From a virus (taxonomy: Duplodnaviria; Caudoviricetes), in the IMG/VR virus record IMGVR_UViG_3300022926_001762, positions 1 to 55,918 of that record: a stretch of 55,918 nt of DNA; one strand, 5' to 3'. The position numbers were made by a program, and so were the translations under genes. Below are positions 28,276 to 43,003 of this stretch, one piece after another; the first letter of the stretch is position 1, and the number at the start of each line of letters is the position of its first letter. The notes beneath the pieces were generated by a model that had not been told where the DNA came from, ran no database searches, and saw nothing but the letters and a program-made list of their open reading frames with translations.

Positions 28276-28980
28276 ATGATTAATAGCATCAGAAACACTG
28301 TTCTATCTATCATAGATAAAGACAATAGCGGATACATATCCCCTAGCGAATTTAATCTGTTTGCAAAAGCAGCTCAACTAGAGATCTATCAAGAGTATTT
28401 TGATAACTATAGAAAGGCGATAGCTAATAAGAATAACAGAAAAGGGTCTAGAGGGGCAGCGGATGAGGTAAAAGACATATCGCACAAACTTGATATTTTC
28501 ACCAAAAAGAGCGATTTGGCTGTTGGTGACAACTACACGTTCACTTTACCCAGTGACATGTATATTCTCAACACCGTTACTGTAACAACAGAGTCTGTTG
28601 ATGATATAGTAGAGGAGGTTGATAAGACTGAGTTTTTTTATTTGAAACAGGCTAATCTAGCCTCTCCTTCTGAGAAATATAGAATATACACTAGATACGG
28701 AAATGAAATAGATATGTTTCCTGTGCCTGAATCCGCACAAGCTATATATTATAGAACACCTTCAACACCCAAATGGACTTATTTATCAACTCCTGGAGGA
28801 GATCCTATCTACAACCCAAGCGCAAGCGATTTCAAGGACTTTGAATTGCATCCAGAAGAGGAGACACAGCTTATCGTTAAGATACTAAGATATGCTGGTG
28901 TTACTATCAGAGCAGAGGATGTTGTTAGTGTTGCGGAAGGGCAAGACAATAAGGAATACGAAAAAGAAAACTTAACCTAG
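28276..28980 (+). CDS. Head-tail adaptor / tail tubular ring protein
   Basis: GYISPSEFNLFAKAAQ, LPSD.Y and YYR.P..PKW motifs typical of P22 gp4/crAss ring proteins. Confidence 0.7.
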   Translation: MINSIRNTVLSIIDKDNSGYISPSEFNLFAKAAQLEIYQEYFDNYRKAIANKNNRKGSRGAADEVKDISHKLDIFTKKSDLAVGDNYTFTLPSDMYILNTVTVTTESVDDIVEEVDKTEFFYLKQANLASPSEKYRIYTRYGNEIDMFPVPESAQAIYYRTPSTPKWTYLSTPGGDPIYNPSASDFKDFELHPEEETQLIVKILRYAGVTIRAEDVVSVAEGQDNKEYEKENLT

Positions 28981-28984
28981 ATAG

Positions 28985-29836
28985 ATGAGCTCACAAGACT
29001 ATTATAACGATCCTACTCAATCTGGAAACTACCAGTATGTTCTTTTAAAGGACATAATCAATAATTTTATGTTGATGAATGTTGGTGATGATAAAATCAT
29101 TAATGACATTCCTAGGTATCAAGTGATCCATTACGCTAAAAGAGCTATACAAGAGCTTAATTACGATGCGCTAAAAGAGGTAAAGAAGATTGAAATAGAG
29201 CTCTCTGAGACTCTTAGAATAACTATGCCGTCTGATTATGTTCAGGCAGTTAGAATGTCTTGGGTAGATGATGATGGAAGATTGCATCCTTTGGTTGTAA
29301 ACAGAACTAATGCTATTGCTGATGCCTACCTACAGGATCAGGATGGAAACTTTTTGTTTGATGCAAATGGAGACTTGCAAGAGGCTGAAAGCCTTGCGGA
29401 AACAAGGTCTAACGTAAACACACAAAGATCTATAGATTATGACTCATTGGAAGCTGAACACACTGGTGGTCGATTTGGAATGAGCACGTCTGATTCAAAT
29501 AAAAACGGAAGCTTCATTATAGATAAGCAAGCAGGTCAAATAAAATTCAGTTCTCATCTTAGTGACGGAACTATTATTGTTTTAGAATACATATCGGACG
29601 GTCTTTCTTCTGGCTCTGATGATACTTTGAGGGTAAATAAACTTGCTGAAGATTATATATATAGTTATCTTCAGGCGGAAATTGTTAATAGAAAATTTGG
29701 AGTACAAGAATACATCGTTAGAAGAGCTAAAAAAGAGGCTTCTGCCAAACTTCGAAACGCTAAGATTAGATTGATGAATGTTAATTTTGACGACTTAGTA
29801 CAAAGTTTGAAGGGTAAAGATAAGTGGATTAAATAA
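28985..29836 (+). CDS. Second tail ring/tubular protein
   Basis: AKRAIQEL.YD, MPSDYV, IVLEYISDG; paralogous layout to the upstream ring protein. Confidence 0.65.
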   Translation: MSSQDYYNDPTQSGNYQYVLLKDIINNFMLMNVGDDKIINDIPRYQVIHYAKRAIQELNYDALKEVKKIEIELSETLRITMPSDYVQAVRMSWVDDDGRLHPLVVNRTNAIADAYLQDQDGNFLFDANGDLQEAESLAETRSNVNTQRSIDYDSLEAEHTGGRFGMSTSDSNKNGSFIIDKQAGQIKFSSHLSDGTIIVLEYISDGLSSGSDDTLRVNKLAEDYIYSYLQAEIVNRKFGVQEYIVRRAKKEASAKLRNAKIRLMNVNFDDLVQSLKGKDKWIK

Positions 29837-32800
29837 TGAAATTAAAAAATACATTTCTTTCGGGCAGAATGAATAAGGACGCAGATGAGCGTCTTTTGAA
29901 AAAGGATGAATATACTCATGCTGAAAACATCGTTGTATCTAGTATAATTGATGCTGATACTGGAGTTCTAAAAAATGTAAAATCAAATAAGTTGGCTGGA
30001 TTAACGCTAACTTACAGTGGGGATTCACCTGAAACTGTTGGAGCTGTAGCTGATGACGCTAACAATAAAATGTATTGGTTTGTAGCCACGACAACATCTT
30101 CTTACATCTGTGAGTATGATCATGTATTGGGCGTTTCGTCTATTATTTTATCAGACACTAGAGAGGCACCAGACAATGTATTGAACTTTCAAAAAAACAA
30201 AAAAATACATAGTGCAAACGTATTAAATGACACTGATCAGAATAGAGTTTATTTATTTTGGACAGACGGACATAATCCTCCAAGAAAAATAAACATAGAC
30301 AGGGCTAGATCCTGGAATATTAATGGATTTTCTGATGAAGACGTTAGTGTCATTGTTAAGCCACCATTATTTCAGCCAGAAATAGAATTAGTTAAATCTG
30401 GTAATGTAGATGAGAGTTTTATTAGAGATAAATTCATTCAATTCGCAATAAGATACAAGTATCTAGACGGCGAAATTAGCGCATTAAGTCCCTTTAGTGA
30501 GTATGCTTTTCAGGCTAAATTGTTTTTTTACGACTACGAAGAGGCTACTAATGAGTCAATGCAGAATGAATTTAATCAAGCAAACGTAACTTTCAATACA
30601 GGAGGATCAAACGTAGCTTCAATAGAGCTTATTTTTAGAGAGTCAGAGTCCACAACATTATATGTTGTCGAGACCTTTGATAAAGTAAAACTTGGTCTTG
30701 AGAATGACAAGAGTCACGTATTTCCTTTTAGAAACAGCAAAGTTTACACTACGCTTCCTTCTGATGAAATGAGCAGGCTCTATGATGCTGTTCCACTGAA
30801 AGCTCAAACTCAAGAGCTTATTGGAAACAGATTAGTTTACGGTAATTATACTGAAAACTACAACATGGTTGACTACAATAATAACGATATAAAGTTTGAT
30901 TTTACCTTAAACAAAATATCGTTCCCAGTTCAACCAGGAAATCCGTCTAGAACTGCAAAAAGCAATAGAAGTTACGAAGCTGGTATTGTATATTTAGATG
31001 ATTACGGAAGGATGTCTACTGTAATGACTTGTGAAAACAACAGTGTTTTCGTTCCTGTAAATGACTGTATAAACAGAAACACATTACAATTAGTTATAAA
31101 TAATATTGCTCCTAAGTGGGCTAAGTATTACAGGTTATTTATAAAAGAAAACAAAACTCAATACGACACTATAACCCCTATTATTTTCCATAAGGACAAT
31201 GAATTTGTGTGGGTTAAAGTAGAGAAATCTGATGTTGACAAATTTAAAGAGGGAGATTTCCTTGTTGTTAAATCAGATACTTCTGGTATAAAAAATACAT
31301 ACATAGAAACAAAAGTTCTTGAGTATGGTCAGAAAAATAGAAACTTTTTAGATAATCTAGATACAGCCTCTCCTGGAGAAATTCTACAGGAAGAAGGAAC
31401 TTATATTAAGCTGAAGCCTACGAAGTATAACATTAACGATAATGGGTATACTAAGAAATCAAGTCAAAACCACGACGACACGAAAGATAAGTCTGGAGGA
31501 AAAGATCCTAGATTAAGTGGACAAACTTTAAATGCATTTGAAGGACCTTATTACTACGCTGTAACAGAGGGTCAGAATAATGACGTAACTATAAGCGGAA
31601 CCCCTTCTGGTAGCTTCGATCAAAGGTTCGAGATCGTTATTGACGGAGTTACTGGAACAGACACTTTCAAGTGGAGATCTACTAGCGAGGAAGGGACTGA
31701 AGACTGGGTAGAAAATGTATCCACTTCTGGAACACAATCATTATCCGATGGACTTTCTATTTCTTTTGGATCAACCACTGGTCACTTTTTAGGTGAAAAA
31801 TGGAGTGTTTTGGCTAGAAAACCAATTGTTTACGATGAAGATGTAAGATGTCAGACCGTGTTACAAGGCTTTGAAGGTAGTGAAGAAGTTGGTCCAGGAA
31901 GTAGCATGAGGTTGTTTTACACTGAATATAAAGGCTCTCAATCAACTACATTTTCAGCAACATACACTGCTAGTAGATACTATCCGAATATAGAGGAATG
32001 GTGGCACGAGCAGATGAAAGAAGAGATGACCAAGGATATTCCAGAAGGAAATATCAGATGGAGAAGAGGTGTTTCAACTGACGACAATGGAACCAGAACT
32101 AGAGTTTTGGCTATAAATAACAATATTTCGGACCCTATACATTTAATAATAGAGTCTGACTTATATCAGACTGGAAGCGTTAATTTAAGTCTATTTGGAG
32201 CTACAATTATAGACACTGAGGTAGGTAAAAACATAAACGCTGAGGCTTCATGGAATATAGTATTAAAAGATAGAGATGATTCTTTACTTGTATTAGAGAC
32301 TAAGCCCAAGGTAACTAACAGCGATATTTTCTACGAAATAGGCGAAACTTATCGTGTGTCTAGTCAGGGATATCACTTGGGAGCTACTGATGATAGTGAT
32401 CAAGATTCTGAGCAAGCAGCCTTAATTACTTTAGATTTCTTTAATGCTTTTACCTGGGGTAATGCAATAGAGAGCTACAAGTATAAGGATGCTTTTAATG
32501 CTCCAGAGCTATTGCATAACGCAAGACCTTTAACTAACTATTCTGGATACGCAGAAAATAACAGAATAAGCTCACTTACCTATGGTGGAGTTTACGAACA
32601 AACAACAAACTTTAATGGATTAAATGAATTTAACTTAACCTTAGGTGGGTTCATGGATCTCGATGATAAGTATGGTTCTTTACAGAAAATAGTTTCAAGA
32701 GATCAAGATCTAATAGTTATTCAAGAAAACAAAACTAGCAAAGTAATGTACGGAAAATCAGTACTTTACAATGCTGATGGTTCTGGAAACGTGTCGTCTA

Positions 32801-35172
32801 CAAACGATGTTTTAGGGTCTCAAATTCCTTTTGTAGGAGAATATGGGATGTCTACATCTCCAGAGTCTTTTGCAAAATGGTACAATGATTTATTTTGGAC
32901 TGATGACAAGAGAGGTATCGTCTTAAAGCTGGATTCAAATGGCTTAGATGAGATTTCTCAGTACGGAATGAAAGATTGGTTTAGAACCAATATAGGAACG
33001 GCAGATTATCATAAAATTGTAGGAGGTTACGACCCTTACAATGATTTATATGTCATTAGCGTTCAGGATCCAGTTATAGAATGGAAAGAGGATGATTACA
33101 ATTGTGGAGAAGGATCCGTAGTTTGGAAGATAGGCAAGTACTATTGTGAGCAAACTGCTACTCCTGTACCTGCACCTGCGGTTATTCCTGTACCAGTTCC
33201 TGTACCAGTTCCTGTGCCAGTTCCTGTACCTGTGCCAGTGCCAGCTCCTGTAACAATACCTACCCCTCCTGTTCCAACGCCATCACCAGTAGCACCACCA
33301 GTGGCACCACCAGTAGAGCCACCAGTAGTAGCGCCACCGACCTCTGAACCACCAGTATTGCCACCAGTAGAGCCACCAGTAGCGCCACCTGTTGCAACAC
33401 CTTATGTTGATATATTAGGACCTACAAGCGGAACTACTGGATCAACAATTCAGTTGACTGGAGAGGACTATGAGTTTACTGGATCTACATGGGCATGGAC
33501 TGGAGGATCAGCAGAAGGTCTTACCAGCAAAGTGATTAATATCACAGAAAGTGTTGATGGGAATCAGGTTTATGGAGTTACCGTAGATGGAACTTACCAA
33601 GACTACCAAGGAGTTTCTTGGTCAACACCTCCTGTAATACCTCCAGTAGCACCACCATCTGTATCTTCTTTTGTTATTTACGCTAACACATCTAGCGGAA
33701 CAAATCCTTTACAAGGATGGTCTGATGGACCTACTGCGTGCGCTGCCACAGGAGCGCCAGTTACTGTTTATAGTTCTTACGGAGAAACAAGTGTAGCTTC
33801 TAGCTACAACAATGGTCATGCACTATACTTAGATGCTGGATTAACCACTTTATATAATGGTGGTAACACGCATTTTAAAGATCAATACGGAACCAACGGG
33901 AACTCATTTCAAGTAGGGACTAGTGGATTTGTATTTACTTTCACATCATGTATTACTACGCCAGTAGTACCACCAGTGGCACCACCAGTGGCACCGCCTG
34001 TAGCTTCTACACCTTGTTATACTTACTCAATACAAAACAATGATTTCAGTCAAAACTTAACTTTCCAATACAGAGATTGTGATGGAAACTTAATTTCGGA
34101 CCAAGTAGTATTAGCTGATTCTGGAACACCTGATTTCTGTGCTGAACAAGGAAGCGTAAGCAGACAGAGTGGAACTAACAGCTGGGTATTAACAACAGAA
34201 GCAACAACTTGTACCGTTGGAACTCCAACACCTCCAACAACACCTCCAACAACGCCTCCAGTATCAGGAGGGTATTGGAACTTGCGCTTATGCTCTGGAG
34301 CATTAGCAAACCAACAGATAGCTTATGATTCTAATTTAGATTTGGGAACTGTAATAAAAGCATCAAACGGAATTTGCTATGAAATTGATAGTTTCCAATC
34401 TAGTGGAGCTGCAACACAAACTGTAGTTAGTGAATATTCAGATTGTACAGATTGCGAATCTTCTACACCAGTAGCCCCTAGCCCAACTCCAACGCCAGCA
34501 CCAACAGCTTCTTATTTCTATTATTCAGTAGAAGACTGTAATAACCCTCAAACGGTTATTTCTGTAAGAAGTTCTACTAATTTAGCTGGATATTACGGCG
34601 TTTTATACAACGGAACTTGTTACGAAATACAAGGAGGTGGAAGCGATAACACAAACGACATAACATCTTTTTACATAGATTGCGTGGCTTGTCAAGATAA
34701 AATTGTTACTCCATCTCCAGCACCAGCACCTGTACCAGCGCCAGTAGCACCTAGTCCTACTCCAGCTCCAGCACCAGTGGCACCGCCTACAGCGCCACCA
34801 CCGACTGCTCCATCGCCAACGCCATCACCAGTGCCGACTGCGCCATCACCATCGCCAGCACCAGCGCCTGTATATACACCGCCACCAACTGCTGCGCCTA
34901 CAGCGTCACCAGTGCCATCACCTGTATATACAACGGTTCCAGTAGCACCGCCTACAGCGCCACCAGTACCTGCGCCTGTATTTACGACATCGCCAGTGCC
35001 GACTGCGCCATCACCATCGGCGCCGACTCCAATACCAGTGCCAGCCCCAGCTGCACCGCCACCAGCGGTTTCAGGATGGAGTTGTTTTGGGGACACTTGT
35101 TTCGAAACAACGACCAATCCTCAATACGCTACGCTTAAAGACTGTAATTTAAATTGTGGACAGATGGTTTAA
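29836..35172 (+). CDS. Tail stabilisation/nozzle protein (N-terminal ~1075 aa) fused to an extensin-like Pro-rich, Cys-module C-terminal appendage
   Basis: F.SGRMNKD.DERL, LFWTDG.NPPRKIN, GNRLVYGNY, GEYG.S..PESFA, GGYDPY; then (PV)9, PPVAPP and SPAPAP tracts separated by small Cys-rich domains. Confidence 0.85.
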   Translation: MKLKNTFLSGRMNKDADERLLKKDEYTHAENIVVSSIIDADTGVLKNVKSNKLAGLTLTYSGDSPETVGAVADDANNKMYWFVATTTSSYICEYDHVLGVSSIILSDTREAPDNVLNFQKNKKIHSANVLNDTDQNRVYLFWTDGHNPPRKINIDRARSWNINGFSDEDVSVIVKPPLFQPEIELVKSGNVDESFIRDKFIQFAIRYKYLDGEISALSPFSEYAFQAKLFFYDYEEATNESMQNEFNQANVTFNTGGSNVASIELIFRESESTTLYVVETFDKVKLGLENDKSHVFPFRNSKVYTTLPSDEMSRLYDAVPLKAQTQELIGNRLVYGNYTENYNMVDYNNNDIKFDFTLNKISFPVQPGNPSRTAKSNRSYEAGIVYLDDYGRMSTVMTCENNSVFVPVNDCINRNTLQLVINNIAPKWAKYYRLFIKENKTQYDTITPIIFHKDNEFVWVKVEKSDVDKFKEGDFLVVKSDTSGIKNTYIETKVLEYGQKNRNFLDNLDTASPGEILQEEGTYIKLKPTKYNINDNGYTKKSSQNHDDTKDKSGGKDPRLSGQTLNAFEGPYYYAVTEGQNNDVTISGTPSGSFDQRFEIVIDGVTGTDTFKWRSTSEEGTEDWVENVSTSGTQSLSDGLSISFGSTTGHFLGEKWSVLARKPIVYDEDVRCQTVLQGFEGSEEVGPGSSMRLFYTEYKGSQSTTFSATYTASRYYPNIEEWWHEQMKEEMTKDIPEGNIRWRRGVSTDDNGTRTRVLAINNNISDPIHLIIESDLYQTGSVNLSLFGATIIDTEVGKNINAEASWNIVLKDRDDSLLVLETKPKVTNSDIFYEIGETYRVSSQGYHLGATDDSDQDSEQAALITLDFFNAFTWGNAIESYKYKDAFNAPELLHNARPLTNYSGYAENNRISSLTYGGVYEQTTNFNGLNEFNLTLGGFMDLDDKYGSLQKIVSRDQDLIVIQENKTSKVMYGKSVLYNADGSGNVSSTNDVLGSQIPFVGEYGMSTSPESFAKWYNDLFWTDDKRGIVLKLDSNGLDEISQYGMKDWFRTNIGTADYHKIVGGYDPYNDLYVISVQDPVIEWKEDDYNCGEGSVVWKIGKYYCEQTATPVPAPAVIPVPVPVPVPVPVPVPVPVPAPVTIPTPPVPTPSPVAPPVAPPVEPPVVAPPTSEPPVLPPVEPPVAPPVATPYVDILGPTSGTTGSTIQLTGEDYEFTGSTWAWTGGSAEGLTSKVINITESVDGNQVYGVTVDGTYQDYQGVSWSTPPVIPPVAPPSVSSFVIYANTSSGTNPLQGWSDGPTACAATGAPVTVYSSYGETSVASSYNNGHALYLDAGLTTLYNGGNTHFKDQYGTNGNSFQVGTSGFVFTFTSCITTPVVPPVAPPVAPPVASTPCYTYSIQNNDFSQNLTFQYRDCDGNLISDQVVLADSGTPDFCAEQGSVSRQSGTNSWVLTTEATTCTVGTPTPPTTPPTTPPVSGGYWNLRLCSGALANQQIAYDSNLDLGTVIKASNGICYEIDSFQSSGAATQTVVSEYSDCTDCESSTPVAPSPTPTPAPTASYFYYSVEDCNNPQTVISVRSSTNLAGYYGVLYNGTCYEIQGGGSDNTNDITSFYIDCVACQDKIVTPSPAPAPVPAPVAPSPTPAPAPVAPPTAPPPTAPSPTPSPVPTAPSPSPAPAPVYTPPPTAAPTASPVPSPVYTTVPVAPPTAPPVPAPVFTTSPVPTAPSPSAPTPIPVPAPAAPPPAVSGWSCFGDTCFETTTNPQYATLKDCNLNCGQMV
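33160..33402 (+). repeat. Pro-rich coding repeat 1, including (PV)9 from a 12-nt tandem CCTGTACCAGTT
   Basis: 33187-33240 encodes (PV)9, followed by PPVAPP/PPVEPP units. Confidence 0.9.
34708..35067 (+). repeat. Pro-rich coding repeat 2 (about 120 codons of S/T/A/V-Pro) with internal duplications
   Basis: Exact 27-mer at 34828-34854 and 34993-35019; exact 21-mer at 34780-34800 and 34945-34965; both pairs 165 nt apart. Confidence 0.9.
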
Positions 35173-35223: not shown

Positions 35224-36150
35224 ATGAAGTATATAAGCTGTCAGCCAGAAATAAAATATTTCGCTTGGCAGATTGATGTTATGCTTTTCTCTTTTGAGAA
35301 AGTAGGCGTTAATTTGTCTGATGTGCAAATACTTTGTTCTATAGCCTCTGACAGAGTTAGCGAAAAGTTTTGTTTTTCTTATTTAGAAGAAAAGTATCCT
35401 GGAGTATCAGTATATAGATATGAAGACGATCGTCCAGACAAGACGTACATACCTAGTATTAAGCATCACTTACTATACAAGCACTATGAAAAATATCCTG
35501 AACTCAAACACGAAAGCATTTTTTTTCATGATAGCGATATCATTTTTACTAAAAATCCTGGGTTAGAAAAGTACGAGAATAGCGATATTTGGCATTTAAG
35601 TGACACGGTTAGTTATCTTGGGTACGAATACATAATTAGCAAGGGTAGAGACACTTTGGAAACGATGCTGATAACGGCAGGAATGGAAGAGGATCTTGTA
35701 AAGAGAAATCAAAAGAATTCAGGAGGCGCTCAATACGTTTTAAGAAATGTTGACGCTGAGTTTTGGAGGGAATGTAGAGATATGGGAGTTAATTTATATA
35801 AAATGACTAACGTATATGAAAGAGCCAAACTCAAGAATAATCCAGAGTATCATATGCTTCAGGTTTGGACTGCTGAAATGTGGGCTACAATTTGGAATGC
35901 TTGGAAGAGAGGTATATATACTAAGGTGGAAAAGGAATTAGATTTTTGCTGGGCTACAGACGCTTTAAATCGATGGGATGAATGCTCAATATTTCACAAT
36001 GCTGGAGTCACTGACTCGTCTAGCGGAATGTTTTATAAAGGAGCATACATAAGCAATTCCCCTTTTGATACAGATTTAAAGTTAGACGAAAAAAGATGTT
36101 CATTTTTGTATTATGAAACACTTAAAGAAGCGAATCGTAAAAATCATTAA
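35224..36150 (+). CDS. Glycosyltransferase resembling plant/algal GT95/GT96 (Hyp O-arabinosyl- / peptidyl-Ser O-galactosyltransferase)
   Basis: YFAWQ..MLFSF, Y.P.IK, DxD motif (FFHDSDIIF) and W.AEMW in the same order as the YFDWQ, YP..NKP, DADM and W..EMY motifs recalled for SERGT/HPAT. Confidence 0.65.
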   Translation: MKYISCQPEIKYFAWQIDVMLFSFEKVGVNLSDVQILCSIASDRVSEKFCFSYLEEKYPGVSVYRYEDDRPDKTYIPSIKHHLLYKHYEKYPELKHESIFFHDSDIIFTKNPGLEKYENSDIWHLSDTVSYLGYEYIISKGRDTLETMLITAGMEEDLVKRNQKNSGGAQYVLRNVDAEFWRECRDMGVNLYKMTNVYERAKLKNNPEYHMLQVWTAEMWATIWNAWKRGIYTKVEKELDFCWATDALNRWDECSIFHNAGVTDSSSGMFYKGAYISNSPFDTDLKLDEKRCSFLYYETLKEANRKNH

Positions 36151-36171: not shown

Positions 36172-37068
36172 ATGGCTAATTCGGGTGTCGTTGTAGTGAC
36201 GGAATTAAGAAAATTTGTTAACGGTGTAGATACTGGTCAGGTAAAACCAAATGTTGCTGGTGATCCTGATTATATTGCTCCATATCTTGATATCTTAACA
36301 TGTCTACCAAACATAGACCCAGTTACTACTACTACTAGTACATCTACTACCACAACTACGTCTTCTAATGTTTTATCTGCGTTTACACTATCTGTACACA
36401 GTCACAACTCTACAATTGATGCTTGTGCTCATGCTACAGATGGAGGTGCTAATGCTGAATTTTATTTCCTTCCAGGAAATTCAAGTTTACCTGTTGTAAA
36501 CGATGTTTTCTATACTGACATGAATGCACAGAACTTATTATCGGATGGAATATATTATTCTATAATAACATCTTCTGCATATACTGTAAACTCATCAGGT
36601 AAAATAACTAGTATATTTGCTTGTGCAGCACCAACTACTAGCACAACAACTACCACAACTCAAGCGACCACTACAACAAGCACAACCACTACAACTACAG
36701 AGCTTGTATACGATTACTCTTGTAATGGAACTTCTGTTACTGAAGCCACTTTAGATCTTTCATACGGAAGCTATCCTGCAAAAATAATAAACCCATCTGA
36801 CACGTCTACAAACGTTTTTAATTGGGTTGCTTTAGATAGACCTAATAGATTTAACGTTTACAATAATGGAAGCTTAATATCTACTAGTGGATGGGTTGGA
36901 ACAGCAAATTATCCAGGTCCTTGGGGAATGTCATTAAGCACTCCAGGAAGCGGAAGCTTTTCGTTCTCTTGGACGTCTACATCTAATAGAGAGGTTAGAA
37001 TCGAATACGGAGCTTCTGACCCGAATAATGCAATAGGAGACGGAGCAGAATGGTCCTTATCTTGCTAG
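36172..37068 (+). CDS. Mucin-like Thr/Ser-rich virion appendage protein
   Basis: N-terminal motif shared with 41891; TTTTSTSTTTTTSS and TTSTTTTTTQATTTTSTTTTTT linkers between Cys-bounded domains. Confidence 0.75.
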   Translation: MANSGVVVVTELRKFVNGVDTGQVKPNVAGDPDYIAPYLDILTCLPNIDPVTTTTSTSTTTTTSSNVLSAFTLSVHSHNSTIDACAHATDGGANAEFYFLPGNSSLPVVNDVFYTDMNAQNLLSDGIYYSIITSSAYTVNSSGKITSIFACAAPTTSTTTTTTQATTTTSTTTTTTELVYDYSCNGTSVTEATLDLSYGSYPAKIINPSDTSTNVFNWVALDRPNRFNVYNNGSLISTSGWVGTANYPGPWGMSLSTPGSGSFSFSWTSTSNREVRIEYGASDPNNAIGDGAEWSLSC

Positions 37069-37104: not shown

Positions 37105-38322
37105 ATGTTAGTAGAAATTCCAAACTTTTTATCGTACGAGGAGTGCGATAAACTAATCGAAAGAATCGACGAATCAAACACAAGATCTAGTGTTGCTGGT
37201 TCTGGATCAGATCAATCAAAGTATGATTCAGCCAGAACATCGTCAACATCCAACTTAGGAAAAGAAGAACTTTCTGTATTAATACAGACTAGAATAGCAA
37301 AAGAACTTAATATAGATCTGATTAGAGGAGAGGATCTTCAGGGGCAAAAATATGATCCTGGTCAGTACTTTAGACCTCATAATGATTTTTTTGAAGGAGA
37401 TTCATACACAAATCATTGTCTACACTCTGGTAACAGGACTCACACATTCATGATTTATTTAAATGATGATTTTGAAGGAGGAGAAACTAATTTCCCCAAC
37501 TTGGAAGCTTCTGTAAAGCCAGAAAAAGGCAAGGCTGTTTGGTGGTATGACATGAAAGATGGTGAGCTGCAAAGAGACACGCTTCACGAGGGTTCAGATG
37601 TTATTTCTGGATCTAAATACATAGTGACTTCCTGGTGGAGAGAAAAGCCATGGAATAACACTCTTGATTCTCAATTAGCTTCAGTTCATCACAGAAACAC
37701 TGCTCCCCCTGCTAAAACATTTAGCAATTGGGAGGACTTGCCCAAGATAGATCCAGTAGGATTTAAAGTTGTAAAAGTTCCTGAAGAAGCCTGGAGTATT
37801 ATACAGGAGATGTATGCTGAGGTTAAGGAAAGAGGCGTTGAAGAAAAATTTGAAGGAAAGGAGTCTATTATTCCAGGAGAAGGAATAACTAGCTATATAA
37901 TGGATATAAATAGTCTTCCAGAAAAAAGACTTATGGTTCATAATATGTTACTTCCCTTGCATCAGGAATTCGCAAAAGAAAGTATAGAGCCAACATTTAT
38001 ATATGGAATAAGATCTTACATGAGAGGTGCTGCTCTTCAGTTTCATAGAGACAGGATAGCTACTCACCACATATCATCAATAATTATTGTAGATAAAGAC
38101 TTGGCTTGTGGATGTGTAAATAAGCCAGAAGCAGATGATTGGGGATTAGACATCCAAGCACACGATGGCAGTTGGCATAACGTAACTGCTGAGGTTGGAG
38201 AAATGATATTATATGAATCAGCTACCTGCCAACATGGTAGAAACACAATATTCCGAGGTACTAGCTTTAATAACATGTTTGTTCATTATAGACTAAAAGA
38301 CTGGGAGTATGTCGGAAACTAA
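37105..38322 (+). CDS. Prolyl 4-hydroxylase-like 2OG-Fe(II) dioxygenase with a second 2OG-Fe(II) domain
   Basis: Domain 1: NFLS.EEC, RTS, E.LQ..Y..GQYF.PH.D, R..TFMIYLND..EGGET.FP, TLHEG..V..G.K. Domain 2: YGIRSY..GA.L..HRD...HGR. Confidence 0.9.
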   Translation: MLVEIPNFLSYEECDKLIERIDESNTRSSVAGSGSDQSKYDSARTSSTSNLGKEELSVLIQTRIAKELNIDLIRGEDLQGQKYDPGQYFRPHNDFFEGDSYTNHCLHSGNRTHTFMIYLNDDFEGGETNFPNLEASVKPEKGKAVWWYDMKDGELQRDTLHEGSDVISGSKYIVTSWWREKPWNNTLDSQLASVHHRNTAPPAKTFSNWEDLPKIDPVGFKVVKVPEEAWSIIQEMYAEVKERGVEEKFEGKESIIPGEGITSYIMDINSLPEKRLMVHNMLLPLHQEFAKESIEPTFIYGIRSYMRGAALQFHRDRIATHHISSIIIVDKDLACGCVNKPEADDWGLDIQAHDGSWHNVTAEVGEMILYESATCQHGRNTIFRGTSFNNMFVHYRLKDWEYVGN

Positions 38323-40876
38323 GTACATATCTTTTGATCCTTGGTGGGGAGGATACTCGAACATAAGGATGACCTATGAGATAGTAGCTGCTATATCTGT
38401 AATAACAGGAAGAAAGCTGATCATACCTCCAAAAATATACTGTTTATTTCTTTCTGAATGGGAAGATAAGTCTAGTTGGTTTGACATGTTTTCTACTTTA
38501 GACAAGGATCTTTTTTATGAGAATTTTGACTGTATTGATTATCATGATGTTCCAGAATACGCTTCGCTAGAAAACGAAACCCAATACTTTGAAAACGTAT
38601 CTAGTATTGCCAAAGTAATTACTTTTGGTGATCAAGACGACAAATTTGGTCCTATGAATGGTCCAGACCGTGATTATTTCATGTATTGTGGCATTGATGA
38701 TCAAAACGATTATAATTCTTTCGCACAAGGAAGAACTGGTATAAATCTGGATGTTGAGGATAAATTTTTGCACTTCCCAAGAAACCTTTTTGGACATTAT
38801 TATTATCACGTATACGGAAAGAATATTTCTACAAGAAACAAGGTTACTCATAAAGTAAACTTAGGAGTACAGTACAAGAAAAAATATTTCTATATCGCTA
38901 AACAAATCGTAGATGATTTAGGAGGTGAATTTGATTCCTTACACATAAGACGAAATGATTTTCTTCAAACAAGAAAAGACCATTCTGAGGCGCAAACAGA
39001 AAATCTGCTTACTGACATTGCAAATAGAATCAGAACAGACGTGCCAACATATGTTGCTACAGATGAAAAAGATAAAAACGTTTTCTCTGACCTACAAAAA
39101 GAGTACGACATACGATTTCTTAGCGACTTTAATTTAGGGCTAGATAGCCACGAAGAGTTAATGGTGGATCAGATAGTATGCTCCATGGGAGAAACCTTCT
39201 TAGGGAGCTTCTTATCTACCTTTTCGGACTATATAAACATACTTAGAGGGCAGTCTGGAAGGAAAGATATGCATAGAGAAGGAACTAATTTCAATAGAGG
39301 TGCTTTGAACTATGATACATTTCCTTGGCTAGCAGAGTCGTGGAGTTGGGACAAAACTTGGGACTACCACTGGAAATATGAGAAAGAAGGTTTTAACATA
39401 GGGATATATGGGTCTCACAACGCTTCTCTGTGTATATCAAAAGGAGGTGATGTATTGGAGGCTGTGGAGGTCGAAAGATGGACTGACATTAAAAACGCTG
39501 CATTTTGTTGTCATTTTCCGCTAAAAAACCCGACTAAAGTTTTAGCTGAGATAATAGATTACTTTAGAGACAAATATGGAGCATATAGATATGACAATTG
39601 TATAAACAATAGTTGTCCTTCAGAATTAAAGCTACTAGAAGAGATTCCAGCAGATAATTTTATTTGGATGCCTCATCATAAGGCTCATGTTTACAACGCT
39701 CTTTACCAAACTGATTTCGAAAAGTCTCTTGTAGTTACATTTGACGGAGGATCTGATGAGGGTCACTTCAATATATGGTTGGCAGAAGGAAAAGAGATTT
39801 CAAAAATACACACAACAACTCAGGACATTTGTGTTCCATATGCTGCTGTCGGTCACTACTTATCTCCTATAAAAAAAGAATTTAACTGGTGGTGGGGTAA
39901 CCTAATTTACGCAGGAAAAGTCATGGGGTTATCTGGATACGGAAAGTTTGATCAGGATATTTTTGAAAAAATGGATTCCTATTACAAACTACAGCAATCC
40001 GATTGTGCTAACAAAGCTCACGAAAACTTTCAAAAGACATTTAATCTTAATGGGGAGTCTAGGTTGGACGAAGAATTATCTAAAGATTTTGCATATATAA
40101 ATCAATATACGTTTGAATCTGTTTTCAGAGGGGTGGTAATGCCTTATGTTCGTAAATACCCAGATCACAAGCTAATATTTGCTGGTGGAGGCGCTATGAA
40201 TATAATAAACAACACTATTTGGGATGCCTACGTTACTCCTAATCCAGACGACAGGGGTCTTTCCTTTGGATTACTTGCAGGTACAATTAAACCAAAAACT
40301 ATTGATACTGCTTATTTGGGGTCATACCCTTTTGATGAGATAGGCTCTACAGAAGATATATCCATGGATGAATTGATACAGTCTTTAGACGAAGGTAGGA
40401 TTATAGGGATGATACATGGAAGGTCTGAGTATGGAGCTAGAGCATTAGGTAGGCGTAGCATAATTTGTATGCCAAGAGAAGGAATGAAGGATAAGCTCAA
40501 TGCCCAAGTAAAGCATAGAGAGTATTTTAGACCGTTTGCTCCAATATGCAGAGATGTTGATGTAGATGATTATTTTACTGATGTTCCATCGAACTTAAAG
40601 TACATGACTCACAACGCAATGTGTTCGGATAAAGACCTAGCTTCTGTCATACACGAAGATGGGACTTCAAGGCTTCAAATAGTATCAGAGGAATCTGAGC
40701 CGTTTGTGTATTCTATATTGACAGCTATGAAGGAAAAAGGTTTAAAGCCAGTTATATTAAATACATCATTTAATGTTATGGGTAAACCGATAATCAATAG
40801 GTACTCAGATGCAAGGGTTATGTTGAATAGCGGAGAATTGGATATGGTAATCAGTAATTTAAAAAAGTTAATATGA
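38309..40876 (+). CDS. Fusion of an O-fucosyltransferase-like (GT-B, POFUT-type) domain and a NodU/CmcH-family carbamoyltransferase
   Basis: N-terminus: GGYSNIRM, R.L..PP, SLHIRRNDF, YVATDE, VDQIVCS..FLGS..STFS. C-terminus (from about 39390): GSHNAS, HHKAH, DGG, GRSEYGARALG.RS, VKHRE.FRPFAP, LNTSFN. Confidence 0.85.
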   Translation: MSETKYISFDPWWGGYSNIRMTYEIVAAISVITGRKLIIPPKIYCLFLSEWEDKSSWFDMFSTLDKDLFYENFDCIDYHDVPEYASLENETQYFENVSSIAKVITFGDQDDKFGPMNGPDRDYFMYCGIDDQNDYNSFAQGRTGINLDVEDKFLHFPRNLFGHYYYHVYGKNISTRNKVTHKVNLGVQYKKKYFYIAKQIVDDLGGEFDSLHIRRNDFLQTRKDHSEAQTENLLTDIANRIRTDVPTYVATDEKDKNVFSDLQKEYDIRFLSDFNLGLDSHEELMVDQIVCSMGETFLGSFLSTFSDYINILRGQSGRKDMHREGTNFNRGALNYDTFPWLAESWSWDKTWDYHWKYEKEGFNIGIYGSHNASLCISKGGDVLEAVEVERWTDIKNAAFCCHFPLKNPTKVLAEIIDYFRDKYGAYRYDNCINNSCPSELKLLEEIPADNFIWMPHHKAHVYNALYQTDFEKSLVVTFDGGSDEGHFNIWLAEGKEISKIHTTTQDICVPYAAVGHYLSPIKKEFNWWWGNLIYAGKVMGLSGYGKFDQDIFEKMDSYYKLQQSDCANKAHENFQKTFNLNGESRLDEELSKDFAYINQYTFESVFRGVVMPYVRKYPDHKLIFAGGGAMNIINNTIWDAYVTPNPDDRGLSFGLLAGTIKPKTIDTAYLGSYPFDEIGSTEDISMDELIQSLDEGRIIGMIHGRSEYGARALGRRSIICMPREGMKDKLNAQVKHREYFRPFAPICRDVDVDDYFTDVPSNLKYMTHNAMCSDKDLASVIHEDGTSRLQIVSEESEPFVYSILTAMKEKGLKPVILNTSFNVMGKPIINRYSDARVMLNSGELDMVISNLKKLI

Positions 40877-41862
40877 AAACAGCTTTAGTTTTAGGTGGCG
40901 GAGGATTTATTGGTGGTCATTTAGCTAAAAGGCTAAAGGATGAGGGATTTTGGGTCTGCATCATTGATATTAAAGAAAAGCCTGAGTTTTTTAACGAAGA
41001 AGACATTTGCGACTTGTATGTTTCTTATGACTTGAGGTTGAATTCATCTCCTTGGTTTCTTGCTCCAGGTCAGCACAGTTTAGATGATAGTGAAAATTCA
41101 TTTGACGAAGTTTACAATTTAGCAGCTGACATGGGTGGCGCTGGGTATATATTTTCAGGAGAAAATGATTTTGAAGTCATGACTAACTCTGCATTAATAA
41201 ACATAAACGTAATAAAGAACTGCATTAAGTTTAACGTTAAAAGAGTTTTCTTTTCTAGTTCAGCCTGTGTTTACCCAGAATACAATCAGTTGAATGCGGA
41301 CAAGCCAATCACCAAAGAGGACACTGTTTATCCAGCAGCTCCAGATTCCGAGTACGGATGGGAGAAGTTGTTTTCAGAAAGAATTTACTTAGCTGCTGCA
41401 AGGAATTTAGGCATTAAAGTAAGGGTAGCTAGATATCACAATGTATATGGACCTAATTGCTCTTGGAATGACGGAAAGGAAAAAGCTCCTGCTGCTATGT
41501 GTAGAAAAGTGGCTGAATCAAAAGACTCTATAGAGGTTTGGGGTGACGGAGATCAAACCAGGTCATTCCTGTACATAGACGATTGCCTGGAGGCAACCAC
41601 AATGTTCATGAGAGGAGAAGAGTTTGAGGGACCAATTAATATCGGATCAGAAGAAATGGTGTCTATAAACGGTCTGGCAAATACGGTTATGAAAATAGCT
41701 AATAAGGAATTGGAAATAAATCATATAGAAGGACCATTAGGAGTTAGAGGTAGATCTTCTCATAACGATTTAATTAGATCTATTTTTAACTGGGAGCCAA
41801 AGTACAAACTTGTTGATGGTCTGCGTCCTACTTACGAATGGATAAAAAAGCAAATCTCTTAA
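40873..41862 (+). CDS. GDP-mannose 3,5-epimerase-like extended SDR
   Basis: GGGGFIG, NLAADMGG.GYI, SSSACVYPEY.Q, YGWEK, GKEKAPAA.CRK, WGDG.QTRSF and GVRGR motifs characteristic of GME. Confidence 0.85.
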   Translation: MKTALVLGGGGFIGGHLAKRLKDEGFWVCIIDIKEKPEFFNEEDICDLYVSYDLRLNSSPWFLAPGQHSLDDSENSFDEVYNLAADMGGAGYIFSGENDFEVMTNSALININVIKNCIKFNVKRVFFSSSACVYPEYNQLNADKPITKEDTVYPAAPDSEYGWEKLFSERIYLAAARNLGIKVRVARYHNVYGPNCSWNDGKEKAPAAMCRKVAESKDSIEVWGDGDQTRSFLYIDDCLEATTMFMRGEEFEGPINIGSEEMVSINGLANTVMKIANKELEINHIEGPLGVRGRSSHNDLIRSIFNWEPKYKLVDGLRPTYEWIKKQIS

Positions 41863-41890: not shown

Positions 41891-43003
41891 ATGGCAGAGA
41901 ACAGTGGTATAAAGACGGTAACACGGCTAAGGAAATATATTAACGGAAAACCAACTAGGGACACTAAACCCAATACAGCTGGAGATCCTGATTATATTGC
42001 TCCTTATACTGATAATATAAGTTGCCCAATAACACCTCCACCTGTAGCTCCACCGCCACAAGTCGTTCCATCTGCACCTCCTCCTGTGTTCGTTGTAGAG
42101 GAAGAGCCTGGTCCAGATCCAAACTCATGTTCTGAATGTTCAACAACTGTTGTTGAGGATAAAGTGTGCTTGAGCTATCAAGTTTACAATTTATCTACTA
42201 AATATCAGCTTTCATTTCAGTATCAATCTTGCTTAAATGGAGAATGGATTTCAAGAGAAATGCAGCCATCAGAAGAGATGGTCGTTAGTAGTTTGTCTGA
42301 GCCTAAGTACAATTCAGGTCAAGGATCAGATCAGCTGGAGATTTATGAGGAGGCTATAATTCAAGGATTCAACGATATTGATATAAATAAATATCACTAC
42401 ATAACATATAACTGTTTTAATAACAAGGAAAAAAGATACGTTAGACACACCAGCCAATTAAATCCAGGAAACGTCGTAAAGACCGAACATAGCACTTGTT
42501 GCTGGCACGTTGATGAGCAAGTTTCTCCAAGAAAAGCTTTTGATATTATTGTAAATGAAACTAGCTCTATATATAATAACTGTAACGATTGTTGTACTGG
42601 AACAGCTACATTGCCAAGCAAAAACGCTGTACTTACAGGAACATTAAACTCATCAGCTAATTGCTCTAATTCAGTCATTCAAAGTTCTGTTTTTAACGTG
42701 ACTTCACCTGGGAACGTTAAGTTTACTTTTACTGTAAACACTAGTACTGGAGAATACACTAGAGGAACTGGACGAGTATTAAAGGTTGGAGACGGTCTAA
42801 CCGAGAAGGTTGCAAGCTTCCCTTTAAATCCTTATGGATATCCTCCATACGTTCAGAATGGAAAAGAAACTGCACTGCCTACAGAGGTTATTAGAATAGT
42901 AAATTTGAAAGTGGGTACATATAGATTAGAAATAGACCCCTTGACTTGTGCTTCTGGAGCATTTGGATTTGCTTCTTTAACTGCTGTTCCGCAAATAGAT
43001 TAA
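41891..43003 (+). CDS. Pro-rich, Cys-module virion appendage protein
   Basis: N-terminal motif shared with 36172; TPPPVAPPPQVVPSAPPPV linker; Cys modules similar to those in the 29836 C-terminus. Confidence 0.75.
   Translation: MAENSGIKTVTRLRKYINGKPTRDTKPNTAGDPDYIAPYTDNISCPITPPPVAPPPQVVPSAPPPVFVVEEEPGPDPNSCSECSTTVVEDKVCLSYQVYNLSTKYQLSFQYQSCLNGEWISREMQPSEEMVVSSLSEPKYNSGQGSDQLEIYEEAIIQGFNDIDINKYHYITYNCFNNKEKRYVRHTSQLNPGNVVKTEHSTCCWHVDEQVSPRKAFDIIVNETSSIYNNCNDCCTGTATLPSKNAVLTGTLNSSANCSNSVIQSSVFNVTSPGNVKFTFTVNTSTGEYTRGTGRVLKVGDGLTEKVASFPLNPYGYPPYVQNGKETALPTEVIRIVNLKVGTYRLEIDPLTCASGAFGFASLTAVPQID

Follow-up and report, generated by a model that had tools for sequence, protein, structure and literature searches.

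What does a glycosyltransferase encoded among the virion genes of a tailed phage modify? The question is raised by the virus record IMGVR_UViG_3300022926_001762 (Duplodnaviria; Caudoviricetes), whose 55,918 bp, with an estimated completeness of 91%, form the window analysed here. Nearly all genes of the window lie on the + strand, and a gene for a 308-amino-acid (aa) enzyme, opening with ATG (35224..36150, + strand), sits inside the structural operon, among structural genes and not in replication or lysogeny modules. An original prediction, made from the sequence, had placed an open reading frame (ORF) at exactly these positions, where it is indeed present, and had interpreted its product as a soluble phage version of the plant hydroxyproline/serine O-glycosyltransferases of glycosyltransferase (GT) families GT95 and GT96. 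The present analysis points to a different acceptor: the enzyme is probably an O-glycosyltransferase of Thr/Ser residues in threonine-rich tracts of virion proteins, with a remote relationship to the plant HPAT enzymes of GT95.

The five motifs that had drawn attention to the gene are all readable in the translation (YFAWQ...MLFSF at aa 12-25, ILCS at aa 36-39, Y.P.IK at aa 75-80, HDSD at aa 102-105 and W.AEMW at aa 215-220), and all but ILCS are conserved. Across 31 relatives with 41-86% identity, Q7, P8, Y12, W15, Q16, Y75, D103, D105, Q213, W215, M219, W220 and H258 are invariant, as are A260 and G261, with N259 nearly so, while ILCS shows no conservation. Among 150 sequences drawn from 50%-identity clusters, W15, Q16, Y75, D103, D105, W215, M219, W220 and H258 remain at least 90% conserved, a set to which Q213 does not belong. 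Judged by this conservation, the motifs go beyond chance. By analogy, D103 and D105 of the DxD motif HDSD (35527..35538, + strand) are presumed to form the metal and nucleotide-sugar site, with H258 of HNAG (aa 258-261; 35995..36006, + strand) as the presumed third metal ligand; HNAG presumably resembles the HxxG...K motif of GT8. WTAEMW (aa 215-220; 35866..35883, + strand) is a conserved helix motif.

An AlphaFold2 model, built from the 31-sequence alignment, reached a predicted local distance difference test score (pLDDT) of 94.8 and a predicted template modelling (TM) score of 0.92. Foldseek comparison with the PDB returned 286 matches at E <= 0.001, those listed being GT-A enzymes. The best matches (E 2.6e-6 to 5e-5, probability 1.0) are WbbM and a series of solved retaining GT-A enzymes, comprising the catalytic domain of UGGT (GT24), the xylosyltransferase domain of LARGE1, XXYLT1 and Gat1 (GT8), GTA/GTB (GT6), and XXT1 (GT34). 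The solved retaining enzymes share the DxD motif and a C-terminal His with the phage enzyme, but TM scores are just 0.37-0.51 and identities 9-15%; GT95 and GT96 structures were absent from the matches of the PDB structure searches. Among viral models, an uncharacterized phage protein comes nearest (TM 0.94), followed by Orf49 of Lactobacillus phage LP65 (TM 0.74). With its Rossmann-like fold and invariant D103/D105, the protein bears out the expectation of a phage glycosyltransferase with a DxD motif, and according to the model it is a GT-A enzyme of a separate family, shaped like the retaining GT8/GT24/GT6 group. The N-terminus, starting MKYISCQPE, is not hydrophobic, and residues 2-8 form a beta-strand in the model, in keeping with the foreseen lack of a Golgi anchor; the protein is predicted to be soluble, cytoplasmic and metal-dependent. 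A sequence profile search of the PDB with the family alignment brought up three thiol peroxidases at E ~1.5, which were set aside as noise.

The family to which the enzyme belongs is large. Its full length matches PHROG 4417 ('unknown function'; E 2.8e-77, aa 1-304 to profile positions 1-292 of 293), and NCBIfam gave no match. In a 90%-clustered collection, 1178 family matches were obtained among 1398 candidates, none of the 120 members listed carrying a precomputed Pfam domain, and a HMMER scan of 1.84 billion representatives yielded 826 family clusters (50% identity) at E <= 0.001. Phages and prophages of lactic acid bacteria, enterococci, staphylococci, clostridia, Bacillaceae and Bacteroidota carry the family. 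The closest cultured relative is the enzyme of Chryseobacterium phage MA9V-3, with 42% identity. When the 11-kb cassette was compared by megablast with 50,697 phage records, no match emerged.

The acceptor is suggested by the genes next to the enzyme. The neighbourhoods sampled were the best 80 of 553 viral loci, which were merged above 80% enzyme identity into 46 clusters with one skipped (n = 45), and the best 80 of 138 loci in prokaryote genomes. A Ser/Thr tract was defined as 22 or more Ser/Thr among 40 consecutive aa, with at least 10 Ser/Thr in 12 aa as a second measure. In the viral clusters, such a tract is encoded by the upstream gene in 31 of 45, by the downstream gene in 5 of 44 and by other genes in 12 of 453; the Fisher value of p = 9e-29, like the others given here, treats related loci as independent and so overstates significance. 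The second measure returned nearly the same distribution (31/45 upstream, 6/44 downstream, 13/453 elsewhere), and unfused enzymes in prokaryote genomes follow it as well (19/42 upstream, 0/44 downstream, 21/359 elsewhere; p = 1e-10). Tract-bearing neighbours include major tail proteins of PHROG 88, 6686 and 238 and major head proteins of PHROG 840 and 10, with the poly-Thr tails at the C-terminus in the PHROG 88/6686 tail and PHROG 840/10 head examples. Because these neighbours belong to unrelated structural families, the feature common to them is the tract and not a fold. In Enterococcus phage phiFL1A, for instance, the major tail protein gp50 ends in 23 Thr/Ser and is followed by the enzyme gene gp51, and in phage MA9V-3 a 428-aa protein upstream of the enzyme has an internal poly-Thr tract.

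The joint gain and loss of tail and enzyme is the strongest evidence for the poly-Thr tract as the target. Viral homologues of the phiFL1A major tail protein, 27 in number and 65-100% identical, were collected with the tail omitted from the query. Twelve of them have a poly-Thr end (14-23 Ser/Thr in the last 30 aa), and the enzyme is encoded directly downstream in all twelve; the other 15 lack such an end (4-6 Ser/Thr), and in none of these is the enzyme found within 1.5 kb (p = 5.8e-8). The proteins 79-100% identical to the query and those at 65-68% each include tailed and untailed forms, so the pairing has changed at least twice. A further set of 40 Lacticaseibacillus-type major head proteins (82-100% identity) is so uniform that it is less informative, 38 of them having both tail and enzyme. 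In one of the remaining two, an unrelated 372-aa C-terminus replaces the tail and the enzyme is absent. In the other, at locus L308, the enzyme is kept and the tail is replaced by an unrelated Pro/Leu/Arg-rich ending, as if the reading frame had shifted within the repetitive ACN tract, through either a sequencing error or real slippage.

According to the mechanism proposed, the enzyme would start O-glycosylation on the Thr/Ser hydroxyls of disordered Thr-rich virion tracts, with a common host nucleotide sugar as the putative donor. D103-x-D105 and H258 would hold the metal and the sugar diphosphate, the disordered tract would thread into the acceptor site, and the sugar would probably be transferred with retention of anomeric configuration, as the nearest folds are all retaining enzymes. 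In this phage, the most likely acceptor lies in the downstream 298-aa appendage protein (36172..37068, + strand), in whose translation an N-terminal module of ~45 aa is accompanied by two poly-Thr/Ser tracts, one of 14 aa (aa 52-65; 36325..36366, + strand) and one of 22 aa (aa 155-176; 36634..36699, + strand). A second acceptor may lie upstream, in the 1778-aa protein, whose Pro-rich tail contains 29 Ser/Thr residues. The outcome would be a mucin-like sugar coat on the appendages of the particle.

Several points weigh against this assignment. Acceptor and donor are proposed through guilt by association, and the Fisher values behind the association are inflated by relatedness, as stated above. 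The tract upstream of the enzyme in the window is Pro-rich, its best 40 aa holding 17 Ser/Thr (counted in the near-identical locus L003), which is under the threshold, and 14 of the 45 viral clusters have no upstream Ser/Thr tract. Additionally, none of 24 fused chromosomal forms from Bacteroidota has a Ser/Thr tract within 6 kb; the family is therefore not tied to such tracts everywhere, and the acceptor of the fused forms may differ from that of the phage forms. HPAT, the nearest named family, acts on hydroxyproline, and a prolyl hydroxylase is encoded 1 kb away; furthermore, the phage enzyme might act after a different one, lengthening a glycan already initiated. The fused forms, of 500-900 aa, reside in chromosomes of Chitinophaga, Pedobacter, Mucilaginibacter and Sphingobacterium (loci L088, L101, L102, L105, L109, L119, L124, L125 and others).

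How far the resemblance to HPAT reaches bears directly on the acceptor. The Pfam HPAT profile (PF23452; length 307, gathering cut-off 23.9 bits) is the sole Pfam match of the window enzyme at E <= 1, scoring 11.9 bits (E 0.14) with aa 201-247, the stretch containing WTAEMW, aligned to profile positions 180-226. The relative P0150, 39% identical to the window enzyme over 303 columns, reaches 21.9 bits (E 1.3e-4), its aa 9-242 aligning as a single segment with profile positions 9-230 (222 positions). Carried through the pairwise alignment with P0150, the match of the window enzyme falls on the same profile columns, in keeping with colinearity with HPAT. For the HPAT motif order claimed in the original prediction, P0150 offers an alignment over most of the profile, but the window enzyme itself aligns in its short stretch alone.

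Within the family, such matches are sparse. At E <= 1, HPAT is matched by the window enzyme alone among the 31 close relatives and by 4 of 70 unfused representatives, the window enzyme included, which amounts to 4 of 100 distinct sequences over both sets; at E <= 0.001, it is matched by none of the 80 fused members. Among the families listed, those other than HPAT matched at most two members in either set, leaving HPAT as the sole recurring one, and Glyco_transf_8 was not among the Pfam families at E <= 1 for the 31 and 70 members (for the 70, the best 25 of 38 families). With ~180 sequences scanned, one E of 1.3e-4 would be expected by chance ~0.02 times, and a second match falling on that family even more rarely. 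In the ESM Atlas, 20 of the 30 nearest named clusters form the HPAT set, the best of them having just 10% of its members so labelled, and DUF7164 accounts for 6 of the 30. A six-frame search of the window record with the HPAT model found no match at E <= 10, as this first look is less sensitive than hmmscan. In five bacterial genomes with family members, the model left those genes unmatched and gave one weak match elsewhere (E 0.36, with an internal stop). Across 401 Bacteroidota genomes, it gave none at E <= 0.01, with 14 control genomes also blank and hence no positive control.

Remote homology of the enzyme to the HPAT lineage is likely on this sequence evidence, which partly supports the plant-type label in the form of similarity below the threshold but does not establish membership in the HPAT family. 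The assignment to a plant GT95 type thus keeps its one recurring Pfam family and loses the formal match, since no member examined reaches the cut-off, P0150 being the best. The prediction had named ordinary GT2/GT8 enzymes without any GT95/96 affinity as the contrary outcome, and this is half borne out: the structural matches go to GT24, GT8, GT6 and GT34 enzymes, but the sequence affinity goes to HPAT and not to Pfam GT8.

In plants, HPAT adds a sugar from UDP-L-arabinofuranose to the hydroxyprolines of extensins, and SGT1 acts on Ser in a hydroxyproline-dependent way. HPAT1-3 (GT95) resemble the phage family through the recurring Pfam match and the colinear, sub-threshold alignment of P0150, and would also share with it, as is proposed here for the phage enzyme, the low-complexity tracts of structural proteins as acceptors. 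They differ in that both scores stay under the cut-off and in that the genomic partner of the phage family is poly-Thr, not hydroxyproline. SGT1, the peptidyl-serine alpha-galactosyltransferase of GT96, glycosylates Ser in a repetitive structural protein and offers the closest functional analogy to the proposal. A deep-learning survey predicts a GT-A-like fold for GT95, agreeing with the GT-A model of the phage enzyme, and a novel fold for GT96, in contrast to the clear GT-A fold found here (PMC8476585). A review relates GT95 to GT96 and describes HPATs as type II membrane proteins of the Golgi, an anchorage that the soluble phage enzyme lacks (PMC8012813).

The alternative that survives best takes the plant parallel literally, with a prolyl 4-hydroxylase (P4H) hydroxylating (Ser/Thr/Ala/Val)-Pro tracts and the enzyme of this clade adding sugar to the hydroxyproline, as HPAT does on extensins. 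A genuine P4H is encoded 1 kb downstream of the enzyme gene, as the N-terminal half of a 405-aa two-domain dioxygenase (37105..38322, + strand; Pfam 2OG-FeII_Oxy_3, E 2.3e-15), with PDB matches to the P4Hs of B. anthracis (5iax, 3e-28), Chlamydomonas (2jig, 2e-20) and PBCV-1 (5c5t, 2e-19) and to human C-P4H alpha-2 (7zsc, 7e-18). It is followed by an 855-aa fusion of an O-fucosyltransferase (O-FucT)-like domain with a NodU-type carbamoyltransferase (38309..40876, + strand; O-FucT 5.7e-13, Carbam_trans_C 1.7e-46, Carbam_trans_N 8e-11) and by a 329-aa homologue of GDP-mannose 3,5-epimerase (40873..41862, + strand; Arabidopsis GME 2c59, E 3e-84, aa 6-328; Pfam Epimerase 2.4e-38). Going by homology, the epimerase would supply the O-FucT-like domain with GDP-L-galactose, which is closely similar to GDP-fucose, and its position beside the fusion suggests phage-made GDP-L-galactose and a carbamoylated L-galactose glycan.

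The upstream neighbour of the enzyme, a 1778-aa virion structural protein (29836..35172, + strand; PHROG 14478 'virion structural protein', E 2.9e-257), carries two Pro-rich tracts. Linker 1 (aa 1105-1196; 33148..33423, + strand) has 38 Pro in 92 aa, with VP, PP and AP repeats. Tract 2 (aa 1620-1751; 34693..35088, + strand), the tract expected just upstream of the enzyme gene, is present with a length of 132 aa, comprising 52 Pro, 24 Ala, 16 Thr, 15 Val and 13 Ser, and represents a candidate hydroxylase substrate and a possible glycan acceptor. P4H occurs in five of the 80 enzyme loci (L003-L006 and L008; L007 ends just after the enzyme gene), exactly the loci in which 40 aa of the upstream protein contain 18 Pro or more, and the P4H-linked enzymes form one clade with a Shimodaira-Hasegawa-like approximate likelihood ratio support of 100 in a tree of 56 enzymes, from which near-duplicates and L053 were left out and to which 10 hand-picked genome copies were added.

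The same survey, however, leaves 75 of the 80 enzyme loci without P4H, and the reciprocal survey separates the two further. Among 80 viral P4H loci found with a P4H alignment (L163-L242; 51 with at least 3 kb upstream of P4H), tracts reaching 14 or more Pro per 40 aa, typically TP, SP, AP or VP repeats and often located in the adjacent gene, are encoded in 44, but one locus alone (L164) has the enzyme. P4H and the Pro-rich tract thus constitute a module of their own, whose companions are the O-FucT-like domain (19/80), the carbamoyltransferase (11/80) and the epimerase (8/80); in enzyme loci, these three occur in the five clade loci alone. As P4H travels with other partners, the window is read as joining two cassettes, one of poly-Thr protein and enzyme and one of Pro-rich linker and P4H, O-FucT-like protein and epimerase. 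The clade enzymes depart from the family at four conserved columns alone (R65, C184, G188 and V214 in the window enzyme), none of them in motifs, and therefore give no sign of a change of acceptor; a poly-Thr protein, moreover, still adjoins the enzyme gene. The hydroxyproline acceptor that had been predicted is accordingly not borne out by a family that tracks poly-Ser/Thr, and its use by this clade is unlikely. Equally doubtful is the wider scheme of a marine phage clade with an extensin-like pathway, in which P4H would act first, HPAT-like transfer would go to hydroxyproline or, in a hydroxyproline-dependent manner, to Ser/Thr, and the O-FucT-like fusion, fed GDP-L-galactose, would elaborate the glycan. 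If true, this would be the first bacterial virus to make a hydroxyproline-linked glycoprotein, and the GT95/GT96 lineage would gain a branch in prokaryotic viruses. Under the preferred reading of Thr/Ser O-glycosylation, P4H, the O-FucT-like/carbamoyltransferase fusion and the epimerase would be a second, separately inherited module, most likely acting on the Pro-rich linkers. The two-domain P4H, of ~390-436 aa, recurs in marine viral contigs, with a C-terminal dioxygenase-like second domain in 56 of the 80 loci.

A different division of labour would have the enzyme extend a glycan whose first sugar is added by a host enzyme or by the O-FucT-like protein. The nearest folds do include the glycan-acting enzymes UGGT, LARGE1, XXYLT1, GT6 and Gat1, and fusions with a second glycosyltransferase are common in the family: 80 of 149 listed representatives exceed 420 aa, and the domains added in these 80 are Glyco_transf_7C (10), GT2 (7), GT6 (3) and GT29, GT32-type and GT25 (one each), besides one radical SAM/SPASM and one methyltransferase domain, the remaining forms having no match at E <= 0.001. 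The family domain is usually N-terminal in the fusions, however, occupying aa 1-300 in most of those listed, and partners that are mostly glycosyltransferases fit an initiating enzyme joined to chain extension, with the order of action left unproven. In the Bacillota phage and prophage examples examined, the enzyme is the sole phage-encoded glycosyltransferase beside the poly-Thr tail, and the two are gained and lost together, which also argues against a role confined to extension; this role is improbable. Still less probable is an acceptor outside the virion, namely host cell-wall polymers (in lysogenic conversion) or phage DNA bases, for both of which phages encode glycosyltransferases and to which the 24 fused chromosomal forms without a nearby tract might point, but which would not suit a gene lying between structural genes and would leave the perfect co-variation with the poly-Thr tail unexplained.

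Glycosylation of virions by phage enzymes has a precedent in the mycobacteriophages Che8, Corndog and Myrna, whose phage-encoded glycosyltransferases modify their own virion proteins (Freeman et al. 2023, as cited in PMC12363180). The window enzyme, for which the same role is proposed from the linkage of its gene to virion-protein genes, belongs to another family by sequence, with no mycobacteriophage among the 77 phage records that match it at E <= 1e-5. A full-text literature search, with most subscription journals outside its coverage, returned nothing on a PHROG 4417-type family, on poly-Thr tails combined with a glycosyltransferase or on a phage P4H-glycosyltransferase system, and found self-glycosylation for no phages other than mycobacteriophages. 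The accessible part of a marine phage proteomics paper (PMC12014285) contains nothing on phage glycosylation or hydroxyproline.

If Thr/Ser O-glycosylation is confirmed, many dairy, gut and marine phages would carry a mucin-like coat on the poly-Thr tails of their major capsid or tail proteins, which could alter stability, adhesion, immune recognition and host range and would be invisible both to standard proteomics and to electron cryo-microscopy of disordered tails. The cassette of enzyme and tail is compact and might find use in glycan display on phage particles. Through its remote link to plant GT95, the family offers a clue to where enzymes regarded as specific to plants came from, and the hydroxylase/O-FucT-like/GDP-L-galactose module, for its part, recurs in marine phages beside Pro-rich linkers.

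The structural block around the enzyme gene runs from terminase (20076) and portal (22373) through virion proteins to the 1778-aa virion protein, the enzyme and the 298-aa Thr-rich protein, and continues with the 405-aa dioxygenase, the 855-aa fusion, the 329-aa epimerase, a 370-aa protein and a protein with a crAss muzzle C-terminal domain. Between 29 and 44 kb, a promoter and terminator scan found sites no more numerous than in shuffled sequences, and the counts are therefore uninformative on operon structure. Earlier in the block, a 234-aa protein (28276-28980) shows weak N-terminal EF-hand matches (E 4e-4, under the Pfam cut-off). In 37 of 80 related viral loci, the gene for a homologue of the 1778-aa protein lies upstream of the enzyme gene. 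The C-terminal third of the 1778-aa protein itself consists of small Cys-bearing domains with Pro-rich linkers between them, and within aa 1200-1620 several Cys-containing modules of ~40-90 aa each are arranged like beads on a string. A 141-aa Gly/Ala-rich ORF on the minus strand (34692-35117) mirrors the Pro-rich tract, CCN being read as NGG, and is almost certainly not a gene.

The 370-aa protein (41891..43003, + strand), which has no Pfam, PHROG or PDB match, opens with the same module as the 298-aa protein (62% identity with aa 4-45 of the 370-aa protein, E 6e-15; 36172-36310 and 41891-42030) and, on this similarity, is a probable second appendage. As one N-terminal module heads otherwise different proteins, the two may be interchangeable virion appendages, the module probably being their common docking domain. 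It is kept in 15 of 80 enzyme loci, where it heads Thr-rich proteins, and in related loci such as L009, L024 and L166 it also heads two or three tandem paralogues.

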